Part shown: positions 10,780 through 44,600 of the stretch, one piece after another | Position numbering within the stretch: the first letter of the stretch is position 1 | How the letters are laid out: each line of letters starts with the position of its first letter | Source: Catajapyx aquilonaris | Lineage: Eukaryota | Assembly: GCA_000934665.2 (NCBI GenBank) | Contig: JYFJ02002703.1 | Span: 1 to 52,300 of the forward strand | Length of the DNA: 52,300 nt | Direction of reading: 5' to 3' | Program-made: the position numbers and the translations under genes | The notes under the pieces: model-generated | What the model was told of the DNA's origin: nothing | Seen by the model: the letters and a program-made list of their open reading frames with translations, nothing else | Databases searched by the model: none

Positions 10780-10860
10780 CAGTGGTTTCCAACCTTTTAC
10801 CAACTGCGACCCCCTAAACATGTTTCCATAAATGTGCGACCCCCCCCCCCCCCCCNCCCC
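10780..10860 (+). mobile_element. hAT MITE left-end fragment
   Basis: CAGTGGTTTCCAACCTTTT followed by GCGACCCC repeats; no right end seen. Confidence 0.45.
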
Positions 10861-12764: not shown

Positions 12765-12920
12765 GGATTTTGATTGTGAAAGGAAACTGGAGAACCCCGA
12801 GAAAACCCACATGAACACTGAACTCTTTACGTGAAACTCATTCATGCGATCCGGGCATCAAACTTGGGACCTCAAAGGCGAAAGGTTGTGACACTAACCA
12901 TTGCACCACCGTTCTGTCCC
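12765..12920 (-). mobile_element. tRNA-derived SINE fragment with V/Meta-SINE-like central domain
   Basis: Minus strand: A box TGGTGCAATGG, degenerate B box AGTTTGATGCC, then GTGGGTTTTCTCGGGGTTCTCCAGTTTCCTTTCAC. Confidence 0.7.
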
Positions 12921-12923
12921 TGA

Positions 12924-12998
<75 letters not shown>
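12924..12998. repeat. (AAT)25 microsatellite
   Basis: Perfect trinucleotide run. Confidence 0.98.
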
Positions 12999-15900
12999 CT
13001 GAAAACTTTCCGTAAGAGTGGTTTGACACAGAAGTCCTGATTGGCAGCAATCATAATGAGCGGAGAAGAGCCTGTAAAGTAGATGTTTGTTTACCTTGGA
13101 AGCTCCATGTGTGTGGGCCAATGAAGCCGCGGATCTGGCCCAAAAAATCCCTGCCTGAATATTTTGCGGGTCTTGGATGTGACGCCTCAAAGACACCGCT
13201 CACCCTCATAAAATGTATATGTACAATATAACCCCTGACCCACCGGCTTCTTCCAAAAGGGGACAATCACGGGGGGTTCCCTATCATTTTATAAGAAAGC
13301 ACACGAGTTCTCGAGCCGAAAAAAGTGTGTGTCAGAGGAAAAAAAAAAACGGTTTTCAAAGCTGGACGGAAGTTGGGCAGAGGGATTAGGTCGGGACCAA
13401 ATGAGCCATAACCGTAGGCCTCTTCTTTCTTCGGCCCTTGCAAGACGACCCTTCCAGTAAACAGTCCAAATGACGCAGAACGGTGCAAATCTATCCGTAT
13501 TTCACCCCAAAATTGGGACGCCTATTAGTTAGATGGGCTGGGGCCATGTGGGTCCTTTGTCAGTCACTAAGATAGATTTTTCTTATGTCTCTCGAACCTT
13601 GTTATGCACTGTGGGGTCGTACTGAGTTGCCATCATAAGCACATTGGCTCAGTATGAGGTCATTAGGAAGGGATCCCATAACAGTATATGTTTGTGGTGC
13701 TTAGATCCCAAGGGACAAGTCGAGTTGACACGTGTTTGGTTGTATTTGATTTTTGGTGTGTTGTAGGGACAGTGGCAGGTCACCCACTTGAGAGGAGGGC
13801 ATTTTCCAAACCCTTAGAAAAATACCAAAGCTTTTCCCGAAAACCTTATCCCCTCGGAGGTCAAATTGGCCGCAAGATTTCTTTCCGCAGCTGCTTTTCT
13901 GTCGTGGCCCGTGACAACCTACCTCGGGCCTGCTTGATTTACACTCCTACACCCTACCCTGACCATGGTCACTGGTCAGTGTCTGGTAGGATGGACCCCA
14001 ATTATGGCAGGCTTCCGACGCGTTCAGGAAGTTATAAATAATTTTTTCTCCCAATGCCACTGAAGTGAAAATTGTTGGTCTGTAGGCTCATTATTATAAT
14101 TATAATTATAATTATAATTATTATTATTAATTTAAATTAATTACACTTGCACTGTGTAAGTATAGGATATAGGATTTGGTATTGGGTGACCCGTGATACC
14201 CATAAGATAAGTTGACTTGTGGGATTTTATGGTATAGTTTGTGGCTTGTTTCGTAATTTGTAAGCCCTTCTTTTTATCACTGACTTGTGAGTGCCTCTTG
14301 AGGAAATGCGATACTAACATTTGCTAATATAGAAAATTACAGAAATTTAGTGCCACTACTTACGTTCAGTGGTTCAGAAGATGCACATCACTAGCCAAGG
14401 AATCTTACCACCAGAGTAGTTATCCGTGAGCAATGATGTGTGCACCGTACAGTTGAGCCGGAGCCTGACGAACGACTAACACGGAATTCTGTGTAGAAAA
14501 TTCCACATGCCATACTAAACGGCAGTTGCCAAAATTTTCCCTTCAAAAAATGTTTCTCGGTCAGCTGGTAGACTATAATGTTGGAAGGCCCCAAAGTTCC
14601 GAGTTTGACACGACACATGCGGTTGTCTACTTCAGACCCAGAAATAGCCGTTCACAAACACCGCTACAAGCAGGAAACAAGTTAAACTATAATTATGCAT
14701 ACAATCTTCAGATCGACATGTCTGCTGTCATTACAGCAGTAGTTGTCATGATCGTGTGAACTTATAGTGTATGCCCCTTTTTTGTATGAATGATTAAACT
14801 GGGGTGTTTTATGTCATTCCCTAATTTAGACGACATTTTACATTATTACGATTTAATGAATGAATGTCTTGAGGTTGAGATAGGTATCCGGTGGCTATGG
14901 GATTGGTGGAGGAAGCTTCTGGTAGGAGGGCCTGTTGAATAGGGATTGGCTCCGCCCTGGTCCGTTTGGGGATGCTGCCAGGGGAGTCTTGCCTGCATCA
15001 TCCGGCTGCCAGCCCAAAAAGAAGACAACCGGCACGAGGAAATCAAAGAGCACAAGGTGTGACCGGCTGCTTCTTCATCTACAGGTGAGACTCCTCTCTC
15101 TCCACCCCCCCACCCAACAGTCCAACCCCCCCAAACTTTTTTCCACCCACTATATAGACCAGCCTCCGCACTTGCAGCTATTTCTGAGGCACCGCAATAT
15201 GTGTGCACATGCGGGACACAAATTTTGGTTGGCCCGGTGACACGTGTGGGACACTTGATTTGCGAAGTTTGGTGCACAGCATGTTGTCTAAGTTGCCAAT
15301 TCGGGGAAGTTGGGGCAGCACGTGGTAAAACTGAGGCACGATTATGGTGACACATTATGTGGTCTTAAGAGCGATGTGTGACAGATATGTTTCAAGTGCT
15401 TGTGGCGAAGACTAAGATTTTTGATTGAAGTAAGGGAAGTCAGGCAATAGATTGACGAAATAGTTTGGGATAGGGAAAATGCTTATTATTTTTTACATCG
15501 CAGCCGAAAGTGGTTACTGCTAACTGCTATTGACATATTAGCGATATTAATTGTGCATTAAATGATTTCCAAGTTTGAAATACTTTCACGTGTAAATTGA
15601 ATGTAATTAGCTTTGAAAGTGCAGTAATTCCAGCGCAGAGTGTTTTTGTGTTTCCGGATGAGACATGAAACACACTGTTTTCGTTTGCACTCCCATAACC
15701 AAAATTGTAGCTATGGCACCTAAACAGTTATAGACTCTATGTAATGCTCGTATCTGCAAATCTTACATCCACATGTTGACCTCGAATTACCTATTAGGCA
15801 TAACGGTAAGTATTGTTTAGTATAACGTCCACAAGCAAAACAAAATAATGTATACCCGGTATCTCTCATGCCACATAAAAATAATAAGCTTGAACAATTA

Positions 15901-18095: not shown

Positions 18096-20379
18096 GATAT
18101 CCGTTTGCCAAATCCCATGTTATTCGTGGCATAAGCAAATAATTTGATTTTAGGACTATTCATGAAGTTGGCTTTTGACTACACCATGATTGGCATCACA
18201 GCGTTACATAATGCAGTTAGATAAACAGGCTATGGCATGGGGGAGAGTGAATCAGATCATGATTAGCGGCATCTAAATATTGTTACGAGTATTCTTAAGA
18301 GAAAATGCTTTAGTTAACATAGAAGTTTTGTACTCTATTATTCTTGTCGGGGAATGATGTGAGGTTCTCGAATCCGGCTAACAAGTAGGCCTATTATGTA
18401 AGTATTTTATGTTGTTTTATTTTTATTTTCTCCATGTGGACGGGGAAATTCATATCAATTACTGCATTTCAGAAGTAAAAATAATATCGTTTGATCTTAA
18501 AATTTGTTGAAATAATTTTTCCAAGATATTATCATAATTATCCACTTGACAGCATCAAGTGACTTTCACATGATATGTCTAAAAAGTATTTGGCAGGCGA
18601 GAATAAATGCATCCCTGACCAAGATACGAGGGAATATGTTGGGCAGGCTTTTCACATGCTCACAAGATCTGTCATCATTGTTCAGAGTAATGCTTTGATA
18701 GATATGGTCTTTGTGCGCAGTGGTGACTAAAGATTAGCGCCATCATGATGTGGCTGTGTGGAATTTTGTGGGAATATTGTTAAAGAACACATGGCAAAAC
18801 TTTTGGAATTATGTAATGCTTCTTAATAGCAGGGAAAACTGAATTGTCGGCAGTGCTGTGGGATGAATCGAATCACATAATTATCACTTAGGCCTATAGC
18901 TAATACTGTAGAACAAAATATTCTTGAATATGTTTATTATTGAGGGACACGAGATAACTACTGCCAGGAGGACTTGATGAAGGTGTTTCGATGTTATTTT
19001 CGTTTCATTACACACTTTTATACTGCATGTTTTGAATTCTCCGGTTTATTTTCAGAGCAAAACACAATAACTAGTCCAAATATACACAGAAAACTTTTTG
19101 ACCCAACAAAATGTGTCATTTTTTGCCCAAACCAGCACACTAAAACGTGTCATCTCAAATACAACACGAAAATACGAATCGGATGGCACTATACCGCAGA
19201 AGTCCCACATGTGTGCCCTGTGACACACACATATATGTCATCCTTCCACAAGTGTGTCACTTGACACGTTTTGGCATGTCTTTGCAGAGAACAGGATTAG
19301 GATATGTATAGTATGTCATGTGAAATGGCGCACAGTTTTGTGTCATTTGACAAAAAACGCCTTGAAGAAATTTCCTGACACGTTTTTGTGTGTCAGATAA
19401 CATGTATTATGTGTCGAAAGTGTGCCACCGTTTGGTGTGTAAGAGCTGATGTGATTGCAAATCTGCCAGATTTTTGGCATATTGGAACGTTGTAGTAAAT
19501 GTAGTAACCTACATAAAATTTAAATAACAGTTTATTTGTCTTTCAATGCAAGTTCAGAAACAATCCTTCCTTTCAAGTGACGTTTTTATAATTGCACAAA
19601 TATTTTTGTTCGTTGGATTAAAATGCACCAAACTCTCCCCATTCGGAGAAAACAATCTCTTGGGGACTATACGCAAATTATAATACCGAGAGACAATACT
19701 TTATGTACATGGCACTTCACGCGGTTGACAGAAATGTTGTTGGATAGTATTTATTGGGTTTGCTTTGTTCTGTAAAGTAAGAACTTTTCTGTCATGACGA
19801 TACATTTTAAAGCGTGCAATAATTTAGTGAGGTACCGGTACTTGATTTTTTCTGCAGGATAAAGGATTGCCACATAATTATGCTTGTCATATACCTGTCA
19901 CTGCTGCGTTAGAGAATGTCCGTTTGTCTTTCATGAAAGGCACACAAGGTAGCAGACCTTAGTACTTAATGGCGTTACGAATTTTATTAACGATGCCACT
20001 CCGGGAATCATATCCTTATTTTGAATTTTTCTGTAAAATCACAAGTTCGGGTACGTAATTCCAAATGATTATAATGTACGAGAAATAATATTACAGCCGC
20101 ACCCTGCTGTATGTCGCGTTGCTTGTACCGCACCACAAGAAATACCAAGAAGAAAATAATGTTTATTATTAAGCAGCTTATGTGCAAAGCAATAGCTGTC
20201 GTGTTCCTTCACCTTATTGAAACTCAGCTAAATAGCGGTCAACTAACCGCTGTCAAACGGCTTGCTTATTTGGCAAAACCTAACGTTAGTTATTCTGAAC
20301 AAGCCACAGTACTTGAACACGCATAAGACAATATTTTGATAATAGCACTTATAACAATTCTCATTGATTGTACAGACTG

Positions 20380-20667
20380 ATGCCGCGCAAGAGGAAGGAA
20401 AGCGGGAGCGGAAGCAGCAGCGGGAAGGAAAAGCCCGGCCAGCGCAACGCAGCCAACGCGCGAGAGCGTGCGCGAATGCGCGTCCTGAGTAAGGCTTTCT
20501 GCCGACTCAAGACCACCCTTCCTTGGGTCCCAGCTGACACCAAACTGTCCAAATTGGACACCCTTCGTCTGGCCACCTCCTACATCGCCCACCTGAGAAC
20601 CATCCTGACCGAGGAGGCCGCTGCGACACCCTCCGATGCCACCCCAAGCATCCATCCACTCAATCTG
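20380..20667 (+). CDS. MyoR: MyoR/musculin/TCF21-family bHLH transcription factor, bHLH exon
   Basis: [56 protein letters not shown] is near-identical to the recalled TCF21/MSC bHLH. Exon ends IHPLNL before a GTCAGT donor at 20668. An acceptor (TTGTACAG, ending 20375) precedes the ATG. Confidence 0.92.
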
Positions 20668-23300
20668 GTCAGTACACCCGGTTTGCTGGTTGGCAAAAGA
20701 CAACCGAGCACACTCATTAGGAATGTGGCAAAACTCAGTCCCTTCCCACAACTTCCACTCCGGCCCCCCTCTAATTTGCCCGCTAACTGGGTGCTGACAG
20801 GCCGCCGCTGAGACATGAGACCCATCTGTTTCGAAGTTCTGCCAAATTGCCCGTGCCACAGGGTTGATCACCTCTTCTCGTCATTTACAGCTGTGCTTGT
20901 GTACTGCTTCGGATGTTCAAAATGTATTGTTCGTCATTGTTTATTAAATGGTACTACAATTATGGTCAAGTTGTATATGGAGCAAGGGGGTAACCACTTT
21001 GGTACTCCGGTGTACACCTGCAAGTGGTACTCCAGTGTACTCTTTTCAGTCGAGTGGTTACCCCCTTGATAGGGAGCTATAGGAGAGGTTTTTTTTGCAA
21101 ACATTGAGCAAGCAGTGCGGTTTTTGTGTGGAAGAGGACATCAGCCCAGTAAGAACAAAAAAGTTATTGTAAGCTAGTGATGGTGTGCGGAGTTGGCGCA
21201 ACACCATCTGTTTACAGTAGTGTTTCTTGTTTTGTTTGATGGTATAGGCTACAGAGGTCCGCAGGAGCTTTGAGTCATCCTTCTTGATTGTGGTGACAGT
21301 CAAAATGTTGTCAGCAGCAGGCTTGTGATTGGCTCTCGCTCATATTACGTGTCCATAACTCCATATGATGTAGCTGGGTGGATGACTAAAGCTTACGATG
21401 GTTTTTCTCGGTATAGTTTGCAATTTTATGGAGAATGTTGTTATGTTTAACTACCGCAAAAGTGATTGATTTCTCGCAGTTATTGTAAAATACCAGAAAT
21501 TATTCCGATTAAAATGGCATATTTTACTCAAATGCTACTGAATCAAAAGGCTGAATACAGTCTAGCAAAAATATAATAAATAAATAAAATAAAATTGCTC
21601 ATTGCTAGGCACGCTTAAATAAGACAATTAACTGCTAAATTAACTTAAACTGTAATCCCTATTTCTATTATACGTCGTACTTCACGAATCAAATTGAATT
21701 TTACGTTTAAGAATTTTACTAATGTCTCACCAAATATTAAAATGGCATTAGTTGAACATGCAGTCGAATATAATAGTCGTTTCGCTCTAGTGCCTGCAAT
21801 TTGGTACACGTAAAGTATCCGAGCTTGAGAGCCTCGAAAGGTCCCCACCGACAACTTCCGGACGATGAAACCAAAGCCGGTAGTGGGATGAGGTGCGGAA
21901 AAGGAGAGATCGAGGCAGCTTCCTTATTCCCTCTCCTAATATCCCGACAGGAAGCATCCCGAAAGGAGGAGAGACACAAGCCACCTGTCTAATGGCGGCA
22001 GGGCTCGCGTCCTCACTCGCGCTCCAGGAGGAAGGATTTAGAATCAGCAAAGTTAAGTCGGGCTTACAGGAAGAGGAAGTTGCTTGCCTACACCGGCTGG
22101 CTGCTCCTGGTCGATCATGGGACAGGATGCCCTTTCTTGTCGAGTCACAATATGATGAGGAAGGTCAGTTGGTGACCACACTTCGAAATCATAGGTGGCA
22201 TTTCAACCACTACTTTTGATAAGGCACCTCTTGAGTGTTGGTAAACATACGTGGGAGGTCAAGCTGGTGACCAGCTAATTTTAGGCGCTGTCATCTTCCA
22301 GGGCGCCATCATTGTCAACATACAGCTCTTGAGTTGAAAGCGTCTTGTACGCGTATAGGTAAAAATACTGATGCTCTCTATTTTGCAAGGATGTAAACCC
22401 AGCGGGACAAGATGGTGATCTAGAAGTGTTGTTTTTGCGGATCTGCGTGGGCAGTAAGCGCCAGTCAAAGGCATAGGGAAAAGTACACAAATTCTTTAGC
22501 GTGTAGTCTCAAGTTAAACACGGATGGCAAAAAGAGTGTGGGAAGTCGGGCAAATGTCTAGGTAGGAGATGGAAATGCAGTTGGTCCGGTGCCTTCCACA
22601 CGTCGCGGCCACCCAAATAAACAAGAAGCCATTTTGCGCGACAAGCAGCACTCGAGACAGGGTGGGGGGTTGCGGGGGAGGGTTTAGCACACGACTGTTT
22701 CCAGCTGCTTATGTTTACCTCTCGCCACTACAAAAGGGCCCCTACGGGTTTATTTGACTCCGCAGCGGATTTATTGCTGACATCAACAAAAAAAAAGTGA
22801 GCGATACGTTCCTCTGATGTAAACAATATGAATATGGCCATATCATGTCTGGTTGCTTACACAAAGCATGAAGTGGACACCTGCGTGAGTTACGTGTGTT
22901 AGAGCCTAAAAGGAGCAGAATGACACCTGATACTGCGACATCCTCAGCGCTTTTCTTTGAAGTCTCTCTCAACTATTTTTTTAATTATTTCTTTTTTGGA
23001 GAGGCACTGCTTCGGCGTGTCCTTAGGGCAGACACGTCGCAGTATCTTGGCTCCTTGGATTTTCTCAGCACTTGGGTGTTTATTTTGCACTTGCATTACA
23101 CTTGGGTCTGATTGGCGGCAAGGGAAAACATAGGTCGTCCTTAACACTGATCCATTTTGGTCCCCCCTCACCACTTGGTTACACAATATTCTGGGAACAT
23201 TTGATGAGGACAAGCTGTGGTTTGGTGTGATTTGTATTACTACAACCAACCGAGCAACCAACTGACAAAATTTTAATCAAGAGTCTTCTTGTTCCAGCAG

Positions 23301-27925: not shown

Positions 27926-28905
27926 ATGTCTCAGATCATCAGGAAAATTATCACCTCTCCCAACTTGCCAAAACCACTGGCGCCTTACAGGTATGTTGGA
28001 CGTAGCACAAGTTACCGGATGCAACTAAATTCAATTGTTGAAGTGAACATTTAATGGATACCATACGTGTAGTCAGGACGTTGATATTTTTGCAGTTTAT
28101 ATTTACTATTAAAGTTTGAGTCATTATACGATGTGGGAAGATTGTCTTGCATAATTATTGTGGTAATGTACTGTACAGTACCTTGACAGTACATATTTTA
28201 TTATTCCTTACAGCCCAGCTGTTTTGGTGGACAACACGCTGTATTGCTCTGGTCAAGTGGGGCTCGATGCCAAGACTATGAAGCTGGTAGAAGGAGGTGT
28301 TGAAGCACAGACTCGTAAGGCTATGGAAAACCTGGGGCACCTTCTTACTGCAGCTGGGACCACATATGACAATGGTACTACAGTAGTATAGTCCTTATTT
28401 CATCCGAATGTCACTTATTATCATGTCAGATTAGCGTTCCGGACATATGTGACTTTCTGGTGACCTATCCGTCTTATCGGCAATATAGGTTTATCCTATG
28501 GTAAAATGATTAGGAATTATTTGGGGAGTTACTACTCAACAGCTGCCTGATATGATGCATTGATATACCGTACTAATTGGTTCGTTCCAGTGGTCAAGGC
28601 TACTATTTTGTTGGCTGATATAAAGGACTTCGCGACTGTGAATGACATTTACAAGAATTGTAAGTGACCTGGGTTTTTATAATTTTGGAGCTAGTTAATC
28701 ACGTGACAGTTTGTTTGCAGACTTTAAGGAGATCTTGCCTGCCAGAACTGCTTACCAGGCAGCAGCACTGCCCGTGGTATGATATTTTTATTATGAAACT
28801 TTTGGGCTGTATGTAGTTAATAACATGTTTAAAATTTCACAGGGTGCATTAGTGGAAATTGAGGCAATTGCTGTGGTTGGAGTCGTAAAGACTACTAAAC
28901 TGTAA
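27926..28905 (+). CDS. RIDA: RidA/YjgF/UK114 2-iminobutanoate/2-iminopropanoate deaminase, 137 aa, 5 exons
   Basis: Exons 27926-27990, 28214-28374, 28591-28659, 28721-28776, 28843-28905 splice to MSQIIRKIITSPNLPKPLAPYSPAVLVDNTLYCSGQVGLD...[62 protein letters not shown]. Catalytic PAR arginine and EIEA motif present. AATAAA at 28971. Confidence 0.95.
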
Positions 28906-29643: not shown

Positions 29644-32600
29644 TTACTTGCTAGGTCCCTTTTTGGTACCTCCGCTTGAAGCCACCGACTGAAAGAATTG
29701 GCCTCCAGGATAATTACAGAATTCGCAGAAGCCAGGAGGACCTTGCGGGCCGGGAGCACCTCGTAGACCTGGCATCCCTAGGAGAAAGAACAAACGAACG
29801 TAACACACCCAATTTACTATGCCCATAGATCTGTCAATATTATCCGATGAAAGGTTGATCATGTCAGATTTGACTCAATATTCTCTACAACACTGACCTG
29901 ATCTTCCAGGTTCTCCTCTTTCTCCAGCTCTGCCTGGAATGCCGATTCCTGGTGGCCCAGGTGGACCTGAAATGCGGAAATCCGTGTCACATGTTAATAT
30001 TATGTTAAAAATCCGATTTATACCTGGTAATCCTCTTGGTCCTACAGGTCCTTCGGTTCCTACACCCTCCGGGCCACGATCGCCCGGATCTCCTCTGTCT
30101 CCTTTAGAACCAAGGGCTCCTGGAGGTCCTGGGATACCTGGCATTCCCATGAAGCCTCGTTCTCCAGGTAAACCAGGGGGACCTGGATCACCTACATAAT
30201 GCAAAATTTATGAGAAAAGTGCCGAATGATATGTATCAGCACAGTACCTACAGCAGAAAGCGTGTCAAGCCCAGTTATCGTCTATATATGTTGTTATTTC
30301 AAAATTGTGAAATTATAATTTGACAATTACATTTGCTAATTTGATTTAGGTGTGGTATAGTTGGAAAACTACTCAAGAAAACAATACGTACTACTCATTT
30401 ATCTGCAGATAGAATGGGTTGACATAGCGTATACAGGTCGAAGTGGGTGTAAATGGCAAGGCAGGCTATGATCTACAGTGACTAACTGCCAATTAATAGA
30501 GGTATACTAAATAAAAGCACATGCGAATTTATGAAGAGGCTATAATAAATTTAAGGCTAGAATGTGCGTAGAAACAAAATTCGCTAGTTATGAATATAAC
30601 CTCTTGACTATGAGAGTGTAGCATATATCGCGCCAAAGGCCACTTTGATATGCAAAAGTTGACCAAAAGGCTAGATTTACTCTACATTATTGTGATTTCT
30701 CACACGAAAAGAGGCCAGTTCATTACACCCGCTTCTTGGACCAAACCTTTTGCTGGTACTGTGCATGTGGTCAAAGGCAACTTGAAACGTTCAAAGTGCA
30801 AATATTCACAAGTATCACACAAGCGATAAGTAATGCAATTATTAGTCATGCACATTCATGGTTTGAAGTTAATGCTGCAAAGGGTCTAGAGATTAATCAC
30901 ATGCAGAAAATAGGCATTGGGAATGGATTCCAAATTGTTGAAGGAGTAACAACTCTATTCTGCAATAGTGTGGTGGCTGAGGTAAGGCTACTGTGCAGGG
31001 ACAAAAGAAAATGAATTATTGGGAGAAGGCAACGAAGAAGAATGGCAACGTCACAAGTCTTCGATGCTAAACCCAAAGAGGCGAAACCGATTTTTATAAC
31101 GTAATAATTTCCCTTTCAACGTAGTGCTCTACCAATCTACAACACTGTGATGCTGTCGATTCTCTGAGTATTCTCTTCGGTGACGCAGGGTGAGTGTCAA
31201 AGTACATATACAGTATAGCAACGGAAAGAGGCCTCAGCCACGTTGGTATGAACCATTGTGGGAAGCAGAAAAAGTGAGGGAGAGAACATAACGTGAAATA
31301 AGAAATAGATGGAGACAAGAAGAGGAACAGACTATAGTTACGGATTGGCTACCTGGAATCCCAGGTGAGCCTGGGGATCCTGGACGACCTGGGCGGCCAA
31401 TTCCAGGCATACCCTGCGGACCTCTTAGTCCCCCCGTCAACTCCTCCATCCGTTCTGTGTGTGACCAAAAGCAATCATACAACAACTTTGTAAAACTCGT
31501 TCCTGCCTGCCTCAGCCCTTCCCAAAAATTAACAATACCGCGTGTGTCGTGTCTTTTCGTCATTTCAGTGTGTAATAGGAATAGGATGAGCACAGGCTTG
31601 GGGGACTGAAGATGCATGCCTATCTGCATTTGCCTTGGTCACGACTCACGAACATTATGCTTGAATACTGGGTCGAATAATTCCATGGTATAAGCGAGCT
31701 GTTCTAGATCATGGCAAGTGCAGATAAATATAATTATTCACGAACAAGGAGAAAGTGAAGAGTAGGGTGAATATCTCAAGCAGATAATGGGGATTGACTT
31801 GTGTATGATGGTCGGTAAGCTATGTTCAAGCAATGCTTCTTTACACAAGCTGGCCAAGGGAAAGTAATATCACACAAGGGACAGTCATTGAATTTGGGGG
31901 CAAAATCTGATCCTTCCTGCTGTGGGTTTGCCGAGACCGGACCTAAGTTGTGCCGAAACAGAACCAATCCAGTCAACAGGAAAGACAAGACGATGCCCAC
32001 GAAAGCTGTTAGTCAGGAAAAAAATTGGATCTGGCTTTGTCCATGCAGACCTGGAAGGCCCTGAGAGCCTGGAGGTCCAGGCCGACCCAATTTGCCTCTC
32101 CCTGGAGGACCTGGTGGCCCCATGAGTTTGGAGGTCAAATCTGCCAGTTGATCTGTGGATACAAAAATCTGCTCTCTGGAACTGTCGCCTCTACATCTCA
32201 TCGGTTTTTTTAAAACATTTACACATACTAGGCTACTATGTCATATGTTAGCGTGTGAGAGACACGGGCGGTCTGAAATGTTTGTGTTAGTTATGGTAAT
32301 GAGTGCAAATTGTGGATGATCTAAATACGCATATTTCAGGAACTAATGACACTCCTTTACAGCGATGTCCCTGAAAATAAATGATAGGAAAGCATGGCAA
32401 AAGAATGGGCTACTTAAGTTTGATAAAGATGACGTTGCAACAATTACAAAAAGCATACTAATCTGTCTTAGGCGGAAATTATTTTTCGCCTGATGTGCCC
32501 AAGGGCTGGAAACTACAGCAGAACATACTGATATGAAGCAATTGCCTGAAGGCTATTTACAGTGACATATTACCACCCACAATGTTCTTGAGTTTTACTA

Positions 32601-35600
32601 TAGTCTACTTTTACATGGTGTTTCATATAATTATTCATAACAACCTTTAGAGTGAAATATAGGCACAAGAGGATCACTTAATGCGACTTAATGTGCCTGA
32701 GCCATTTGGTCTCTGCACTCTCGGTACAGAGACACTGTAATAAATTAATCAAAGAGTGCAGTATACCACCTCCTTTGCGACGAACGCAGGGTGTGACACT
32801 TTCATCAATTCGAAGACTGCCTGCTACACCTAATGTGATAGCCGTTTACATTTTTTATTGCATCGAAGCACTTGGATTTTAAATACAGGTCGTCCCCTCC
32901 CCGGTTTACGAACGACCCGACTTACTGCGATCCGTACTTACGAACGGGCTCCCAAGTATCAGCATAAGAATAATTTATAGTTATACGCTTATACCTCCAC
33001 TTTCAGTCACTTGTGCGTATACGTTGACCGACACCAAGTTCAACATAAATACTGGAAAATTAATAAATAATTTGGAAATTACGTACTTCCGCGCATGTAT
33101 TACACAAACACACATGACGTAAGCGGTTCGTTGGGTTCGTTGGAGTAGCATCTGTACGCAATGCATATGATTTGTTCCTTAGGGATCTGAGTTACGTACA
33201 AATCTGACTTTATGGGCATTTTCAGGAACATAACCCCGTTCGTAGACCGGGGACTGCCTGTAATAAAAAGGCAAGGCCGCACGGAGGGACACATACCTGT
33301 CAAGATATTGTGTACTACTAGTGTTTGAAAATCTTGTTTCAGTAACGGGGCTTCGGAGAATACATATGGTAACATTCCTATACAGAGAGTGAGCCGGAGT
33401 GAGCCTTTGATTCGCTGGAGTTATTCTAGAAGTTCGTCTAACACCTTTTACATTGGTATGTATACAGTACCTGAATAATACTGAGAGATGGGCACTCAAA
33501 AACGGTTATAACAATCACCCGTGTAAAGCACATTCGTAATTTATATCCTGCTAATCTAAGTAATTTTGATTCTATAAATGGCAACAAATTGTGAAACGAA
33601 CTGTGCCATCTGACCCATATTGCAGACAGCCAAAAGCAACTAAATATAATTTTGCATTCTTTTAAGCTAATATACTCAGCTTCTCATTAATCTGCGATGT
33701 TTTCTTTGCGTTTCAAACTATTATAATGTCTATAGTACAATCCAGGAAAATATACCATGTGGAACGTTATTTTTCAAACGGATATTACTTATATCTTAAA
33801 GTTTAAAAATGTGATGTTATAAGATGAATCATCTGCAAAGTATAGCTTTGAAAAGAAGCAAACACCATACCTCTAAGAACAGCTGCACATATGTCCCTCA
33901 GTTCAGCTTCGCTAAAACTTCTTCCCTGAAAACCAGAACGTCCATATGAAACAACCCCATAACTTCTGCCAAAATCTAATCATCAGATGTGTATGCCACA
34001 ATAGTATTCACAGAAAAAAGAACTTACAGCTGGCCCTGGTAATCCAGGCATTCCTGCTTGCCCCCTTTGCCCAGGTCCTCCTGTTTGTCCCGGAGGCCCC
34101 GGATTTCCTGGCATTCCAGGATTTCCTGAACCACCTTCTGGCCCCCTCTCTCCAGCTGCCCCTCTTTCACCAGGCTAAATAATGGGAAATGTGAAAAAGG
34201 CAAGTGACTAGAATATACGCACATTACCAATCCAGGAGGTCCAGTCAATCCTCTCGGACCAGTAGCTCCAGGAATCCCAACTTCGTCTCCAGTAATAGTC
34301 TGTGGGATGATTGAAGATTCTCCTGGTGGTCCTGGTGGTCCAGGAGGGCCTGGAGCTCCTGGATTTCCCACGAACCCCGGAAGTCCTGTAGGGCCAATAG
34401 GACCAATAGGACCTATTTGACCCTGAGACAACGTGTACCTTATTACTCTGATCACTTGATGTTCATATGTGCTCACATACCACAGGTCCCGGAAGGCCTC
34501 GTGGTCCTGCAGGCCCTAAGGAGCCAATTTCCCCTTTATCACCCTTGGATCCTGATTTCCCCTGGTTTCCAGGAATACCCGGATGTCCCTGATTCCCAGG
34601 AGGTCCTTCTGATCCCTTCTGTCCTGCTTCTCCACGTTCTCCCTTGAATCCCCTTTCTCCATCGGCACCTGTGACACCTTCGCGTCCTGGAAGTCCGAGA
34701 GGACCGGAGAGTCCAGGCGGGCCAGCCGGACCTATGTCACCCTTTTCGCCGCGTTTTCCATCATCCCCAGCCGGCCCTGGAGGACCAGGTGGTCCAGGTG
34801 GACCTGGATCACCAGCTGCAGCAGCAGCCCCAGCAAGGCCTGGTTCTCCATCACGGCCAGCTTCACCCTTGGGACCAGGTGGTCCAGGGACTCCTGCTGG
34901 TCCCAATGCACCCTGCAACAATTACCCTCCACTTCATTTCCAAATGTTAAAATAGCATTTCGTTCTTCTTTTGTTCCTGGGATATTATTTTGTCCCCAGT
35001 CTTGGCCATCTTTCATTTGTGGGGGTGGGAGGGGGGGGGGACATTGTTACTGCATCTCTGCATCTCATTAAACTTGATGCTCTTGATGTTACGCCCGTAT
35101 CATACTGTCTTGCCGCCTTCACCCTGACAGGGCGGCAAACCTTCATATCCAGCGAATTTGCCTGAGGCAAAAGTCGCCTTTCAACACTATTACAAGGTTT
35201 CCAAACTGGTCCGAGAGATAAGCTGCCGCTAACTGTCATGTAAACTGACGGATTAGCGTTTAGATATATGTAATACTAACTACCTCCACCAGCACGTGAC
35301 CATGACTTCATTATCATTCTGGCTTGGGAATATTGTAGACGGGGATCCGGAAATCAATGTGCACGGGGCCTGCCAATTATTGAGGATATAACCTTTTTTA
35401 TATAAAACAAAACATAGATATAAAATGAAATATTTCAAAAGAAAATAGTAGTTTACCTTTAGCTGTATTCGCTTTTATGAAGCATCACGTTGTAAGGGGA
35501 GTTGACGGGAAGTAGAAACATATCTATTTTTTATGCAATCGGTAGTGCAGATTTTACTGGAAATATCCACTAGCGTGAAAATCTTCGAGAGAGTGTAGGC

Positions 35601-38600: not shown

Positions 38601-41600
38601 TTGCGACTGACAGCTGACGTAGGAACAGCATTAAAAGCAGCTCCCCTTTCACTTGTCAATGCACACCAAGAGTTAATCAAGGCGGGAAGTTCTTATGAGG
38701 CACGTGACTCACCTGAGTGCCGTTGTAACCTGGAGGACCCTCTGGACAAACTACTTCGCAGGTTGGGGGTGGAGTTGGCTCCACTTTTCGAGGCTATGTA
38801 GTGAATAGGGGATTATTATTAGTCCATGTGACATACAAACTATACTATTAATAGTTATTAATAATTATGTAGTCGAGCATATTATCTTCGTTTAATATTG
38901 GATATTTTGTCCCTGTTTACATGATGTTGTAATACGACATATAGCTCGATTTAAAATACATATATTTCCAATTTAGACCTTTGCTCTGATGATCTACTAT
39001 CTATACTTACAGGCAATTCGTCGCAGCGTTCTCTCTCAGGCCTGGTTGGATCGCAGCTGAGCACCATCCATTGAAGATCGACCTGGAGTGAAAGTCCGAT
39101 AGTACAAACTTGCACTCACATTGTAGTGGGCACGTTGAAAGGAATGTGTGTGAAAATGAAGTGCATTTGTGCGCGACAATTGAGTCGTGTAGTGTGGAAA
39201 CTAAATGTCTACAAAATAATTTTCCTGAACATGCGAGAATTAATAGTGAAAACGGTGAGTACTTACAAGCTGGGACCTTATTACTGGCTGCAAAATGAAA
39301 GGAACTTGTTATTACAATGCGAATCTCTCTAGCCGGCCCTGACTTCAGGACACGGGTATTCTATTATTACAACTAAAAAATGGCGAAACTAAAAAGTCGC
39401 CAGACGAGGGTGGGCGAGTAAAAAAAAACATTGCCGTGCAAACAGGATAATTATCGACGCAATCGTAGACCTTGTTCTTATTTATTAGGCATGAACAAGA
39501 TTGTGTGAGAAAAAAAGTGCATGCCGTTTATTTGTCCTGTGGAATGTTTAATAGCCCAAAGAAGCGTCGACCATCAATCACCATAAGGCTGTAAGAGTTA
39601 ACGCCGGGTATGAATTGCGACTAAGGCGTTAGTCATGCAAAGAAATTAATTATTGGGCCATTTATAATGATTATGCGCGAGATAGCCTCCCGCTGCTACG
39701 AGGTATTCAAAAAAATAATTTCTGTGTGCGTGTGATTGTGGACCTATCATCTGAAAACGCAGCTGAAAAAAGTGGACAAAAAGATGATGCGATGGGTGAT
39801 GAAAATGCTGTCCGAAACTCACGGGGACCGTGTTTCTTGAGGTGGCCACTTTAGCTAGGGAGATCTGGCCGTTCACGTCAATTGGCCCTCGAGGCTCCAG
39901 CAGCTCCTCGCTCAACTCTTGGCAGTCTATGTACAGCACCACCCTCTCCCGGAACACTCCAAAATGGAGCTTGTGCCACTTTTTGTCGAATACCTGCCGG
40001 GGAAATAAGGAAAAAAAGGGTTACTTTCCACGTTCCTGCCTTTTCTTACTCGTTTTTTTTTGTGCTACCGGCGCGGAGCCGGCTTGTGTCTCTGTAAAAG
40101 ACAAATGTCTGCTACTTGATCATATTTCAGATTAAATTATCGGTAGTTCTAATTGTCGTAGTTTTTCCCTCAATAAATCAATTCGAAAAACACTCAACCT
40201 TTTGCTGGCCATGTTGATATTGCCGCCTGTTTCTAATCAGTAGCCGCCAATGTCAACCGACTTATTAATAGGGATGCGCTTGTTATTATTGTGTGACACG
40301 CCATAAAACTGATATCAAATCTTAGCATTGCAACCACATATCCTGCCCCTAGATTGAACTTTACTGTAGTTGGGTTTAGTAGTCAAGCGAGTAGGTTCCC
40401 CCCCTGGGGCCGGACCCGGTGTGGTGCACATAATTGCGCCATTTGACTCCGGGTTTTATGGTCCCCAATTTTGGTTTGGACCCTGCAGCAAGGTGAGTAA
40501 TGCATGTTGTCGGTAGACGCGGGTCATTAGCGGAAATAATGAGAGGGGTGGCCAGTTTGATGGAAGCCATCCGCCTAAAGCCCTTGTAAACTAGCGCCTG
40601 CCCCATGTCCCTGAACTACACCACTTGTTATGCAACCCCTGCTTCCATACTCGATGTCAGGCATGGGTGGCACGCGGGGAAGCATAAGGAGCCAGGATGC
40701 CGGCGGAAGGTGACAAGCGCGCAGTCTGCTGTCGAAATAATCTAAGCTGGTTTGGACCAGCCCCATACAATGGGCTGGAAAAAGGCATGGGAGTGGAATG
40801 CTTTCCAACCTGATCCCGTTTCCCTTGGAGATGCGAATCAGAATGCCAATGAGTGCACGGGACAGGTCTCCCAACTGCATGCCTCCACTCACTCCTCTTT
40901 TCTTCACCACCGGGGTCTCCGCATGAGTCTTCCACCCGCCCACTGCCAACTGATACAAATGCGCCCTAGTGATGACCCTGCCAGTAGTGCAATGTTTCCG
41001 AAGGTGGCTACGGGGGGGCTTTTATGGAAATGAGCTCGCTCTAGTTTCCTGGCGACATAGACCTAGTGGGCACGAGAGATTCCTTATAAGGAAAGGTGAG
41101 TGTGAGACTGGCTCTAGATGCAACTATACAGATGACCTCTTCCGAAGCAGGGCGTGGAAGGGCGGGGGTCGAGTGGTTGTGGCTGAGGAGCACCCATGAA
41201 AAAAAAATGAGTGAAAAGAAAAGGGGAAAACCAGTCCGGGAAGATCGGTCGGAGGACCCTGGCAATGTCACCCTAAAGGTAGCAGGTGTCACGCCGAAGC
41301 CATTTTCTGGCCTGCTTTCACTCAGATCCCTAATTGGACCCTAGGTTGCCCTTTCAACTCTGTGCACACCTCTCCCGCATGCGGATGGGGTAAATATGCT
41401 TCAATAAATTGCCCAAGGACTGACCTCTGCCCTGCGAAACACGAGGGTCTGGGGACGACCTTCGTAGTTCGGTGTGGTGAACTCCACCGTCTCCTTTCGT
41501 GGGTTGAGGGTGATGGCAAATTGGACCTTGTCTTGCACGTCCGAAATCCGAATGAGATGCCATGGTGACTTGGGCACTTTCCTCGTCCGGAAGGTGGATA

Positions 41601-44600
41601 TAAAGCTGAACTGCTCCGGCAATCCCAATGGAAAGATCTCCCTGGAATTCAGCATACCAGCCCTCATACACTATACCAGGCAAAAATATTGTAGCAATTG
41701 TTCCATCATTCCTTAGAGGATGATTGGTTGACCTCAGCCCCTTCTGGCTGCGTATTTGACCACATCGATTGCCCCAATAATTTTTTCTGGTAGAGTACAT
41801 GGTGGCGACGTTTCGTGATTAATACTTGAGGTTTCCATGAAGCCCTTGGTCCTGAACCCACCCATCCCTATTTGCGATGAAAGGAACCGGTTGCGCTGGG
41901 TAATGAGGATTTTCAATAGGAAACTCCAGAATGATGTCAGGACGTAGGTTTATGATGGAGATGCTATCGTGCGTTTTTCAGGCGACATTAGTTCCTCTCG
42001 AGACCGGTCTTGGGAGCCAAAAACGATGGGTAGAAGCCAGTGCGCGAAATGAGTCTACAGATTGGATCCTGTCTGTCCTTCGCTGATTTCTACACCTGCC
42101 CTTGGCCTTGGGGTCAACCATGCCCATTTCCATACCGTATAGTTAATCTCTTGCAACCCCCCTCCAGTAGAGAGCCAAAATTCCAGGTAAATTCGGACTG
42201 ATTGGACCACGTTGCCGTGCCTTCATCATTAGACCCGATCCAATGATCCAGGTGTCGGCAGATCGAGTGACGGAAGACTAACAAAAGGCTCCAAGTTACA
42301 AGGGTCATGTCGCGAGTCCTGTGGATCTGGAGCCGCTTTTCGTGACCGGATTAAGGTAATAATTCATCGGTTTTTGTCACGGATAATGCGGCCGCTGTGG
42401 AAAAAGGCAAGCCCGAAGAGAGGGACCCCGGAAAGCACGAGCAAAGAATAATACTCCTTCCACCCGGATCACTAGGGGCACGTTTCTCGCCAATCCTCAC
42501 TTCATGCTAATCACAGGTTACTAACAACAGGTTTCATGGGGGAGGGCGGTAAATCGGCAGCCTTGGATCCCACAGTTTGAGTGAAATATTACAAATAGCG
42601 AGTGATTTTAATTGAAGGTTTCGTTAAGTGACAGTGGACTTGGCAAGACGTGTATATTTTGGAATGTGCTTGCCAGCTTGCCAGATGGGCTGCTTTTTTA
42701 TATACCTTACACTAGTATGTTAGTGTTAATTTGGCAGGAATCTACCTGGTGGGAATGGTGAGATCGGCGTTACGGTCCAGCCTGTAAGCCGTCTGCATCT
42801 CGTTGGAGCCCCGGACTCTAGACACTCCGAGGTATTGCGAGTCCAAGATGTCCAACTGGAACCTTCGAATGAAGTCGAAGGCCTGTAAATCGTCCTCTCC
42901 AGGCTTGTAGTCGGCACATGGCCCCACAACTTCCTCGATTCCATTGTACTCTGAAATGTCAACAATTTTCTCCAGGTGCTCAATCATTCAATGCGGTTTT
43001 CTCATGCTACCCAAAATGGCGCCGGTGCTTTCAACGCAGTCTAATTATGGCATCCTGCTGACAGCCTGCTTGTGACAGTGTCATGAAAAATTGGCTGATT
43101 TTTTTATATGGTTAAAGCTGTTCAAGCAACAGATTCGATTTTTGGACCCCGGATCGCAGGATCATTTGTCAAACCATATACGCGAAGTGTGGGAGGCTAA
43201 TATGGGGTCTTTGCTCATCTGTGAGGGCGCGTCCAATTTTCCTCCATTAATCCATGGGGCCAAGGGGATCATTTGCACGTCCAGGGGCGGCAAGACCAGA
43301 AAAAAAAGTTATGCCAAATAGTCTTGTAAATCGTTCTTAACCACCTGCTGGGGATGGTCATGGATCGAGACGAACAAGTCAATCCTACTCTATAGGTTTA
43401 CTTGTGCTCCTTGGGTCCATGATTCATTTTAGGTTTGTTGCCAGGCAGCAGTTTCTTTCCCTGCTGCGTATTTCACTGATCAGTTTTAACGATCAAATGC
43501 TGCGGGACAGGTACCGTAACTTAACAGACACGCTTATAATAATGAAAAAGTAATGGGCCTACTGTACATTTCAACGTCTTTACAACTCGAATAATTAAGG
43601 GCCTGAAAAAGGACGTAAAATGATTCTCTGACATTTCGAATCATGGGATCTACGTGACATAGCGCCTGATACACCATTAACAACAACGAATCACGGGACG
43701 TATCTTTATTGTGTAAATTGAGATTTTCGAGTAGCCATCGTGAACCGTAAATTGAGTGGCGTCATCAATGGCGCTTGGGCTCGCTAACAAGTAAGATTGA
43801 GAGGGCTGATAGGCATAAAAAGTTGAACTTTAAGTAGGAAATTTACTGTAATATTGTAATTATACCAGACAACTTTCTTTCCAGGTAAAAAAACGGTTAG
43901 TGGCTATGCTATTCAGGTATATATTCGTGCACAATTAATAATGGAAGGAAGCGTATTTATTCCCATTCTTCAAATCACCTTTGTAGTAGACATTCCTGAT
44001 GAATGTCCAATTCTGGGATATCAAGAAATTAGCATATACAGCCAACAAATGGCTATCTAGTCAACATCATCCCAGTGTACATTGCCCCATTCTGAAGCGA
44101 AGATAATTAAAACCAGGGAGGGATCCGTGTTACAAGCAGCTATCCAGCAGCCAAAGAAATCTTCTGTTACAATGAAGCTTGAAAGCTGGCCTGCCTACAC
44201 CCTAATAAATAATGCCTTTAAAAGCCCCTCGATATCATCAAGGCGGAGGGATAAGGCCTCCATTTTGCTTCCCAAGTCCATCACAAAACACAAAACAGGC
44301 CTCACCTGAAGTCAAACAGTACGGTAGCAAATCTCAACTCATCATTTCCATCTAATCGCCCGCCCACCTTATTAGCATACTGATTACTCAGGAGCAAAAG
44401 ATGATCCTCATTCAATCGGATTGGCAGTCGTGTTTACATTCTCCCCACCTCCTTCCAACCCTTACACTAACGCGTCCTGTCAAGATGCACCTAATGATTG
44501 GGAGTGCAGCTCATAGGCATCACTTTGATTGACTGGACTGACAAAAGACGGGAAATCTTCTCGGCATGCCTCTCTACCTGTTTGCCGGCAGGTAAAAAAA

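Follow-up and report, generated by a model that had tools for sequence, protein, structure and literature searches.

In vertebrate collagen IX, the NC2 region selects the chains and sets their stagger (leading, middle and trailing) (PMC5126661, PMC12562938; both available in part). Here we analyse a 52,300-nt stretch of genomic DNA from Catajapyx aquilonaris (contig JYFJ02002703.1, positions 1 to 52,300 of the forward strand, hereafter the window), whose minus strand carries a collagen IX-like FACIT gene (a fibril-associated collagen whose triple helix is interrupted) with two adjoining homologous exons, A and B, at the junction between NC2 and the COL1 triple helix. The arthropod region resembles collagen IX NC2 (PDB 5CTD, 5CTI, 5CVA, 5CVB, 9WXP) in being short, helical and placed between COL2 and COL1, and a profile of it aligns with the alpha1 and alpha3 chains over the entire NC2, Cys included. 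The two systems differ in that three vertebrate genes give three NC2 sequences, whereas the arthropod gene alone holds two versions of the last 11 NC2 residues and of the COL1 start.

The alternative exons of the Caenorhabditis elegans collagen gene let-2 lie inside an interrupted triple helix and not in a trimerisation domain. They are exons 9 and 10 of this alpha2(IV) gene and form a mutually exclusive homologous pair (PMC2119826, available in part); let-2 encodes a basement-membrane collagen IV and the use of its exons was shown experimentally, whereas the arthropod pair is known from sequence. Ancient substitutions between tandem-duplicated exons, as presented in the available parts of PMC9741552 and PMC5740500, share with A and B the adjoining homologous exons of equal length and phase that vary one structural element. 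In the human-Drosophila comparison given in the available part of PMC5740500, joint inclusion is frame-incompatible in 20 of 28 orthologous genes with validated exon pairs; unlike this majority, A and B can be included together in frame. A term search of the main texts of these last two papers, as available, found no occurrence of 'collagen', and no description of an arthropod FACIT exon pair was found in the literature searched, subscription journals being outside coverage. Mutually exclusive collagen exons and ancient exon duplications are known already; a real, conserved pair where NC2 meets COL1 in a collagen IX-like gene of an arthropod is apparently undescribed.

Results

A duplicated exon at the NC2/COL1 junction

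The NC2 region is split over two exons (Table 1). A constant exon, NC2a, encodes its first 18 residues with the conserved Cys, and is followed by A and B. The two copies are identical at 18 of 34 residues and 60 of 102 bases, share hydrophobic residues at positions 3, 6 and 10, and carry a two-residue break of the Gly-X-Y register at the same place (GR/GKL in A versus GI/GRP in B). Both donors match the donor consensus GTRAGT at only one of the four positions +3 to +6; among six other donors read in this gene, the matches range from one to four of four, which places A and B among the weakest. The next constant exon, starting at 30191 behind a tgtag acceptor, is reached in frame through either copy, and a Gly-X-Y scan between 33871 and 30191 found no third copy. 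A and B are thus adjoining and homologous, equal in length and phase and bounded by AG/GT, as mutually exclusive pairs are, and the coordinates, 1-1 phase, CACAG acceptors and weak donors assigned to them in the preliminary description were correct on reading the sequence.

A profile was built from NC2a and the following exon, using aphid and bug sequences besides the window's exons. Against PDB sequences this profile matched the alpha3 (9wxp_CL, E=7.7e-8) and alpha1 (9wxp_CJ, E=3.4e-6) chains of collagen IX with the Cys aligned and, more weakly, 5ctd_C (E=0.018) and 5ctd_A (E=0.033); the alpha2 chain gave no match among these sequences. NC2a aligns to the first half of NC2 in the solved alpha1 and alpha3 structures, and the head of A and B aligns to the last 11 NC2 residues of the collagen IX chains (EQIAQLAAHLR, EHFAEMAASLK). 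Exon anatomy and alignment together indicate that the duplicated exon covers the stretch where the NC2 helix bundle ends and COL1 starts, rather than the entire NC2. The earlier view that the exons swap the NC2 domain therefore stands in part: the altered region does belong to the domain that aligns with collagen IX NC2, but what changes is its last 11 residues plus 23 COL1 residues, register break included, while the first 18 residues and the Cys stay constant.

Both copies are old and under constraint

A scan of metagenome contigs with an alignment of B-type exons recovered 11 loci, which fall into three sequence variants. In 10 of them, B has an A-type exon 138-142 nt upstream of it; the eleventh, L006, has only 167 nt of upstream sequence. 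The NC2a exon is also present in eight of these loci and the next collagen exon in one, and A and B have AG/GT at all four borders, with donors that are weak there too. The loci are closely related to one another (alignable intron windows are mostly ~80-96% identical), and the 95% identity of the A-B intron among them is weak evidence for this reason.

Comparison of the window with one metagenome locus (L001), between which synonymous sites are saturated, showed 25 of 34 residues in common for exon A (proportion of synonymous differences, pS, 0.73; of replacement differences, pN, 0.19) and 24 of 34 for exon B (pS 0.78, pN 0.23). Over the 11-residue head, pN was 0.17 in B and 0.31 in A. Exon B was 59-71% identical to 17 B-type open reading frames (ORFs) from databases, with M3, E4, E5, L6, G9 and L10 invariant. 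A word-based protein search with exon A had a single match, Apolygus lucorum KAF6200105 (P0003), in which NC2a is followed directly by an A-like (EQLSELTSSLT...) and then a B-like (DQWEELRSGLV...) segment.

A wider search, with a profile of NC2a, A and B against 1.84 billion representatives, gave 166 matches at E <= 0.001, the best 150 of which were examined. Most are short ORFs that start at the exon's first residue and stop after 34, and resemble single genomic exons. Among 135 extracted 34-residue segments, labelled additions included, 29 had the strict A motif (QL.[ED]L[TS]), 18 the strict B motif (MEEL..GL) and 88 neither; four of the 18 come from the window (exon B) and from three metagenome loci, which leaves 14 database ORFs. 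In a FastTree phylogeny of these segments, the labelled A exons all fell in one clade with no B exon nested there, the window's B clustered with MEEL sequences that include the metagenome B exons, and the Apolygus B belonged to a second MEEL group.

By these comparisons, the exon pair is far beyond chance, and we conclude from them that the duplication arose before the window's lineage separated from those of the metagenome hosts and of a hemipteran, and that both copies have a function. Conservation of both copies, a feature of mutually exclusive pairs, is seen in 10 of the 11 metagenome loci, in Apolygus and in a pN well below pS. Recurrence in the order NC2a, A, B, together with this excess of synonymous change across lineages, bears out the earlier proposal that the two exons are homologous and both under selection. 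The idea that B is an unused, decaying duplicate (a pseudo-exon) is close to refuted: no transcript-derived protein with a strict B exon appeared among the searches made, but B has an intact reading frame with AG/GT borders, stays in Gly-X-Y register and shows a MEEL..GL motif invariant in 18 sequences, along with the low pN given above.

Splice products of other arthropods point to A as the probable main form

Proteins in which NC2a is followed by A and then directly by the next exon were found in three Adelges cooleyi RefSeq isoforms, six aphid species, two Dalotia coriaria isoforms and a Leptotrombidium model, and the same order is present in two cDNA-like Logan contigs (592 residues on 2497 nt and 593 residues on 1872 nt). 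A tandem of A and B, which should score highest with the profile of NC2a, A and B, was absent from the best 150 of its 166 matches. We counted the weak donors, the A-only products and the missing tandem for alternative use of the copies. With two old, well-kept copies, the gene can probably produce two versions of the NC2/COL1 joint. Mutually exclusive use of A and B, with A as the main form, is the best-supported reading, and we consider it somewhat probable. Splicing-in of B in this animal, exclusion between A and B and any effect on assembly are what we infer from these data.

If B were instead an optional cassette after A, the gene would give NC2a-A-next or NC2a-A-B-next, the longer form adding a 23-residue helix and an 11-residue interruption. 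Joint inclusion would be in frame (102 is divisible by three), the Apolygus model has A and B in tandem and no exclusivity mechanism was found (see below). The head of B, however, shares homology with the last part of the NC2 helix, whose hydrophobic spacing it retains, and this is difficult to account for if B never follows NC2a; moreover, the tandem is missing from the 150 matches and the Apolygus model is visibly faulty, so that we regard a cassette as unlikely. Still less credible, indeed very improbable, is that splicing in this lineage always includes A and B together, as constitutive exons in tandem. Such a product would be in frame and would agree with the Apolygus model, but the NC2a-A-next products of relatives have no B-like segment, both donors are among the gene's weakest and the tandem is missing from the same matches.

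B could also serve another transcript, for example a short form begun in the intron upstream of it, much as a short form of vertebrate collagen IX alpha1 is made from an internal promoter. Weak hints come from P0042 (16409-nt contig) and P0166 (1670-nt contig), where a B-like exon is joined to the next exon after non-NC2 sequence. The sequence before B is, however, intron-like and not conserved between the two, and the head of B still has the helix pattern that a segment continuing NC2a should show, so this origin seems to us highly unlikely.

Two groups of observations weigh against mutually exclusive use of A and B, the first concerning products and homologues and the second, given in the following section, concerning mechanism. 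No protein joining NC2a to a strict B exon appeared in any search made; the nearest case, P0060 (715 residues, 2903-nt contig), reads ERMMELSYTMK and is merely B-like. A word-based protein search with exon B had no match, and the sole protein with both exons, Apolygus KAF6200105, has them in tandem. The species with A-only products may or may not carry a B exon, and ORF P0105 suggests a next collagen exon ~57 nt past A, with no B in that lineage. Finally, 88 of the 135 segments lie outside both strict motifs, and the exon tree, which has 34 columns only, does not unite the B exons in one clade.

The isoforms of Adelges (three), Dalotia (two) and Tubulanus (four), and the members read of a Glossina cluster, differ elsewhere, and none swaps this exon. 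The Apolygus tandem model was rejected as reliable evidence, being fused to an RMI1 gene with non-collagen sequence after B. Its residues ~707-1408, which come after the B-like exon and before the last collagen exons, are RMI1-like (Pfam PF08585, PF16099), and an RMI1 gene is probably nested in that Apolygus intron. In P0026, P0028, P0034, P0091 and P0107, a single ORF spans all of NC2 without an intron after NC2a, and the intron ahead of the duplicated exon is therefore not universal. P0168 (1960 aa, 7769-nt contig) is a collagen IX-like protein with about five tandem TSPN-like domains before the collagen, an uncommon arrangement, and the NC2 region GRSFSDGDIRRICQGVLDNHFQEFIKDL.

Search for a mechanism of exclusivity

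Joint inclusion (204 nt) and joint skipping of A and B are both in frame, hence nonsense-mediated decay cannot impose exclusivity. The A-B intron measures 596 nt here and 138-142 nt in the metagenome loci, which exceeds what steric exclusion allows, and all splice sites are GT-AG, so that there are no incompatible site types. Nor did RNA pairing offer a candidate. An inverted-repeat search of 30100-34000 returned chance-level pairs only, and in a duplex scan of the three introns, run on the window and on a metagenome locus (L008), the top energies lay between -27 and -32 kcal/mol, without an outlier or a common architecture. Folding of the A-B intron is less favourable in L001 than in shuffled versions of it (z = +1.67), and the introns of the window and L008 have 6 exact 11-mers in common, against a shuffle mean of 6.2. 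No recognisable mechanism barring joint inclusion was thus found among frameshift with decay, steric hindrance, site type and RNA pairing.

A 17-nt inverted repeat, 94% complementary with its arms 322 nt apart (32898-32914 and 33237-33253), lies in the intron upstream of exon A and may mark the two termini of a small transposon.

The gene is a collagen IX-like FACIT

By domain make-up and homology, the gene is a collagen IX-like FACIT of an arthropod, and the window holds most of it (Table 1). Consistently with this class, an N-terminal thrombospondin-N/laminin-G-like (TSPN) domain, of the NC4 type, is encoded by four exons with 43-66% identity to Tenebrio (P0005) and Leptotrombidium (P0031) proteins. 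With its third exon alone, the Pfam family Laminin_G_2 gave E=0.0092, short of the family cut-off, and a word-based search gave five proteins. In aphids, an adelgid, a rove beetle and flies, relatives identified through the TSPN exon are labelled 'collagen alpha-1(IX) chain-like'; some carry the label 'Thrombospondin-like N-terminal domain-containing protein' from their sources. Gly-X-Y domains with short breaks run from 37919 to 29725, the breaks being an NC3-like one and NC2. At the COL1/NC1 junction, the Cys pair GFCEFC has a C-x-x-C spacing, as in arthropod relatives; the vertebrate FACIT pair at this junction has a four-residue spacing.

Table 1. Exons and domains of the collagen IX-like gene in the window, in order of transcription.
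Feature	Position	Strand	Evidence and remarks
TSPN (NC4-like) domain, exon 1	42745..42975 (tblastn match range, borders approximate)	-	56% identity to Tenebrio P0005, 43% to Leptotrombidium P0031
TSPN domain, exon 2	41422..41652 (tblastn match range)	-	58% identity to P0005
TSPN domain, exon 3 (WHKLHFGV...RGPIDVNG)	39817..39993	-	tblastn, 66% identity to P0005
TSPN domain, end	39011..39091	-	tblastn, 59% identity to P0031; motif also in Apolygus P0003
Several Gly-X-Y exons of the long triple helix	36380..37919	-	Gly-X-Y runs and ORF listing; single borders not delimited
Large Gly-X-Y exon, 432 nt, phase 0-0	34481..34912	-	acceptor gttgcag, donor gtatgt; Pfam Collagen E=1.9e-25
Exon with short non-collagenous NC3-like break	34228..34422	-	sequence read; comparable break in Apolygus P0003
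Last triple-helix exon before NC2	34028..34174	-	donor gtaagt
NC2a exon (constant, 55 nt)	33925-33871	-	acceptor ttttcag, donor gtatgg; sequence read; ends in phase 1, passing one base on to the next exon
Exon A (102 nt, phase 1-1)	32152-32051	-	acceptor atccacag, donor gtctgc; last 11 NC2 and first 23 COL1 residues
Exon B (102 nt, phase 1-1)	31454-31353	-	acceptor acacacag, donor gtagcc; last 11 NC2 and first 23 COL1 residues
First constant COL1 exon past A/B, phase 1-1	30024..30191	-	sequence read; directly after exon A in Leptotrombidium P0031
COL1 exon, 69 nt	29898..29966	-	sequence read
Last exon: COL1 end, Cys pair GFCEFC, short NC1, stop TAA	29644..29777	-	sequence read; stop codon 29646-29644

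Other features of the window

A gene of the RidA/L-PSP (reactive intermediate deaminase) family in three ORF pieces (28167-28905, plus strand; Pfam Ribonuc_L-PSP E=1.9e-15 and 6.2e-5) converges on the 3' end of the collagen gene. Elsewhere on the plus strand, an ORF at 20368-20808 encodes a basic helix-loop-helix domain (Pfam HLH E=1.8e-17), which by eye looks similar to the TCF21/musculin type. Long opposite ORFs with similar peptides (FYASLPWLWIRP... and FYASLPGLWIRP...) occupy both strands at 2337-2815 and point to a putative inverted duplication of a few hundred bases. A long trinucleotide repeat at 12841-13199 gives runs of Y, L or I in three minus-strand frames, and there is a single N at 10856.

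Discussion

The scheme that we propose starts from an NC2 region split over two exons, of which the one for the C-terminal third, with the first 23 COL1 residues, was duplicated in tandem long ago. Splicing of NC2a through A to the exon at 30191 would then yield the common chain, and splicing through B a rarer, regulated chain of identical length. The B chain would present another surface on the last three helical turns, with R, E, E, G, G and R replacing Q, A, D, S, K and M. The swap would touch solvent-facing and interchain positions of these last three NC2 turns, as well as the first COL1 triplets around the register break, and the altered end of the bundle might change partner choice, stability or the hand-over from helix bundle to the COL1 triple helix. 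A further step, that A- and B-chains co-assemble in a fixed ratio and register as mixed trimers of one gene, with splice choice replacing the three vertebrate genes, is speculative, and we think it quite improbable. Homotrimers of a single isoform, the alternative that the preliminary description raised, would be hypothetical too.

The partner choice of collagen chains and their one-residue stagger are understood for a few domains only. Of the small ones, the NC2 bundle of collagen IX has been studied best, and it serves as a tool for building defined heterotrimers. If mutually exclusive use of A and B is true, a pair of alternative C-terminal parts of NC2, preserved across arthropod lineages, would serve as a natural experiment on the residues that determine assembly, and invertebrates would diversify a FACIT collagen via splicing instead of gene duplication.

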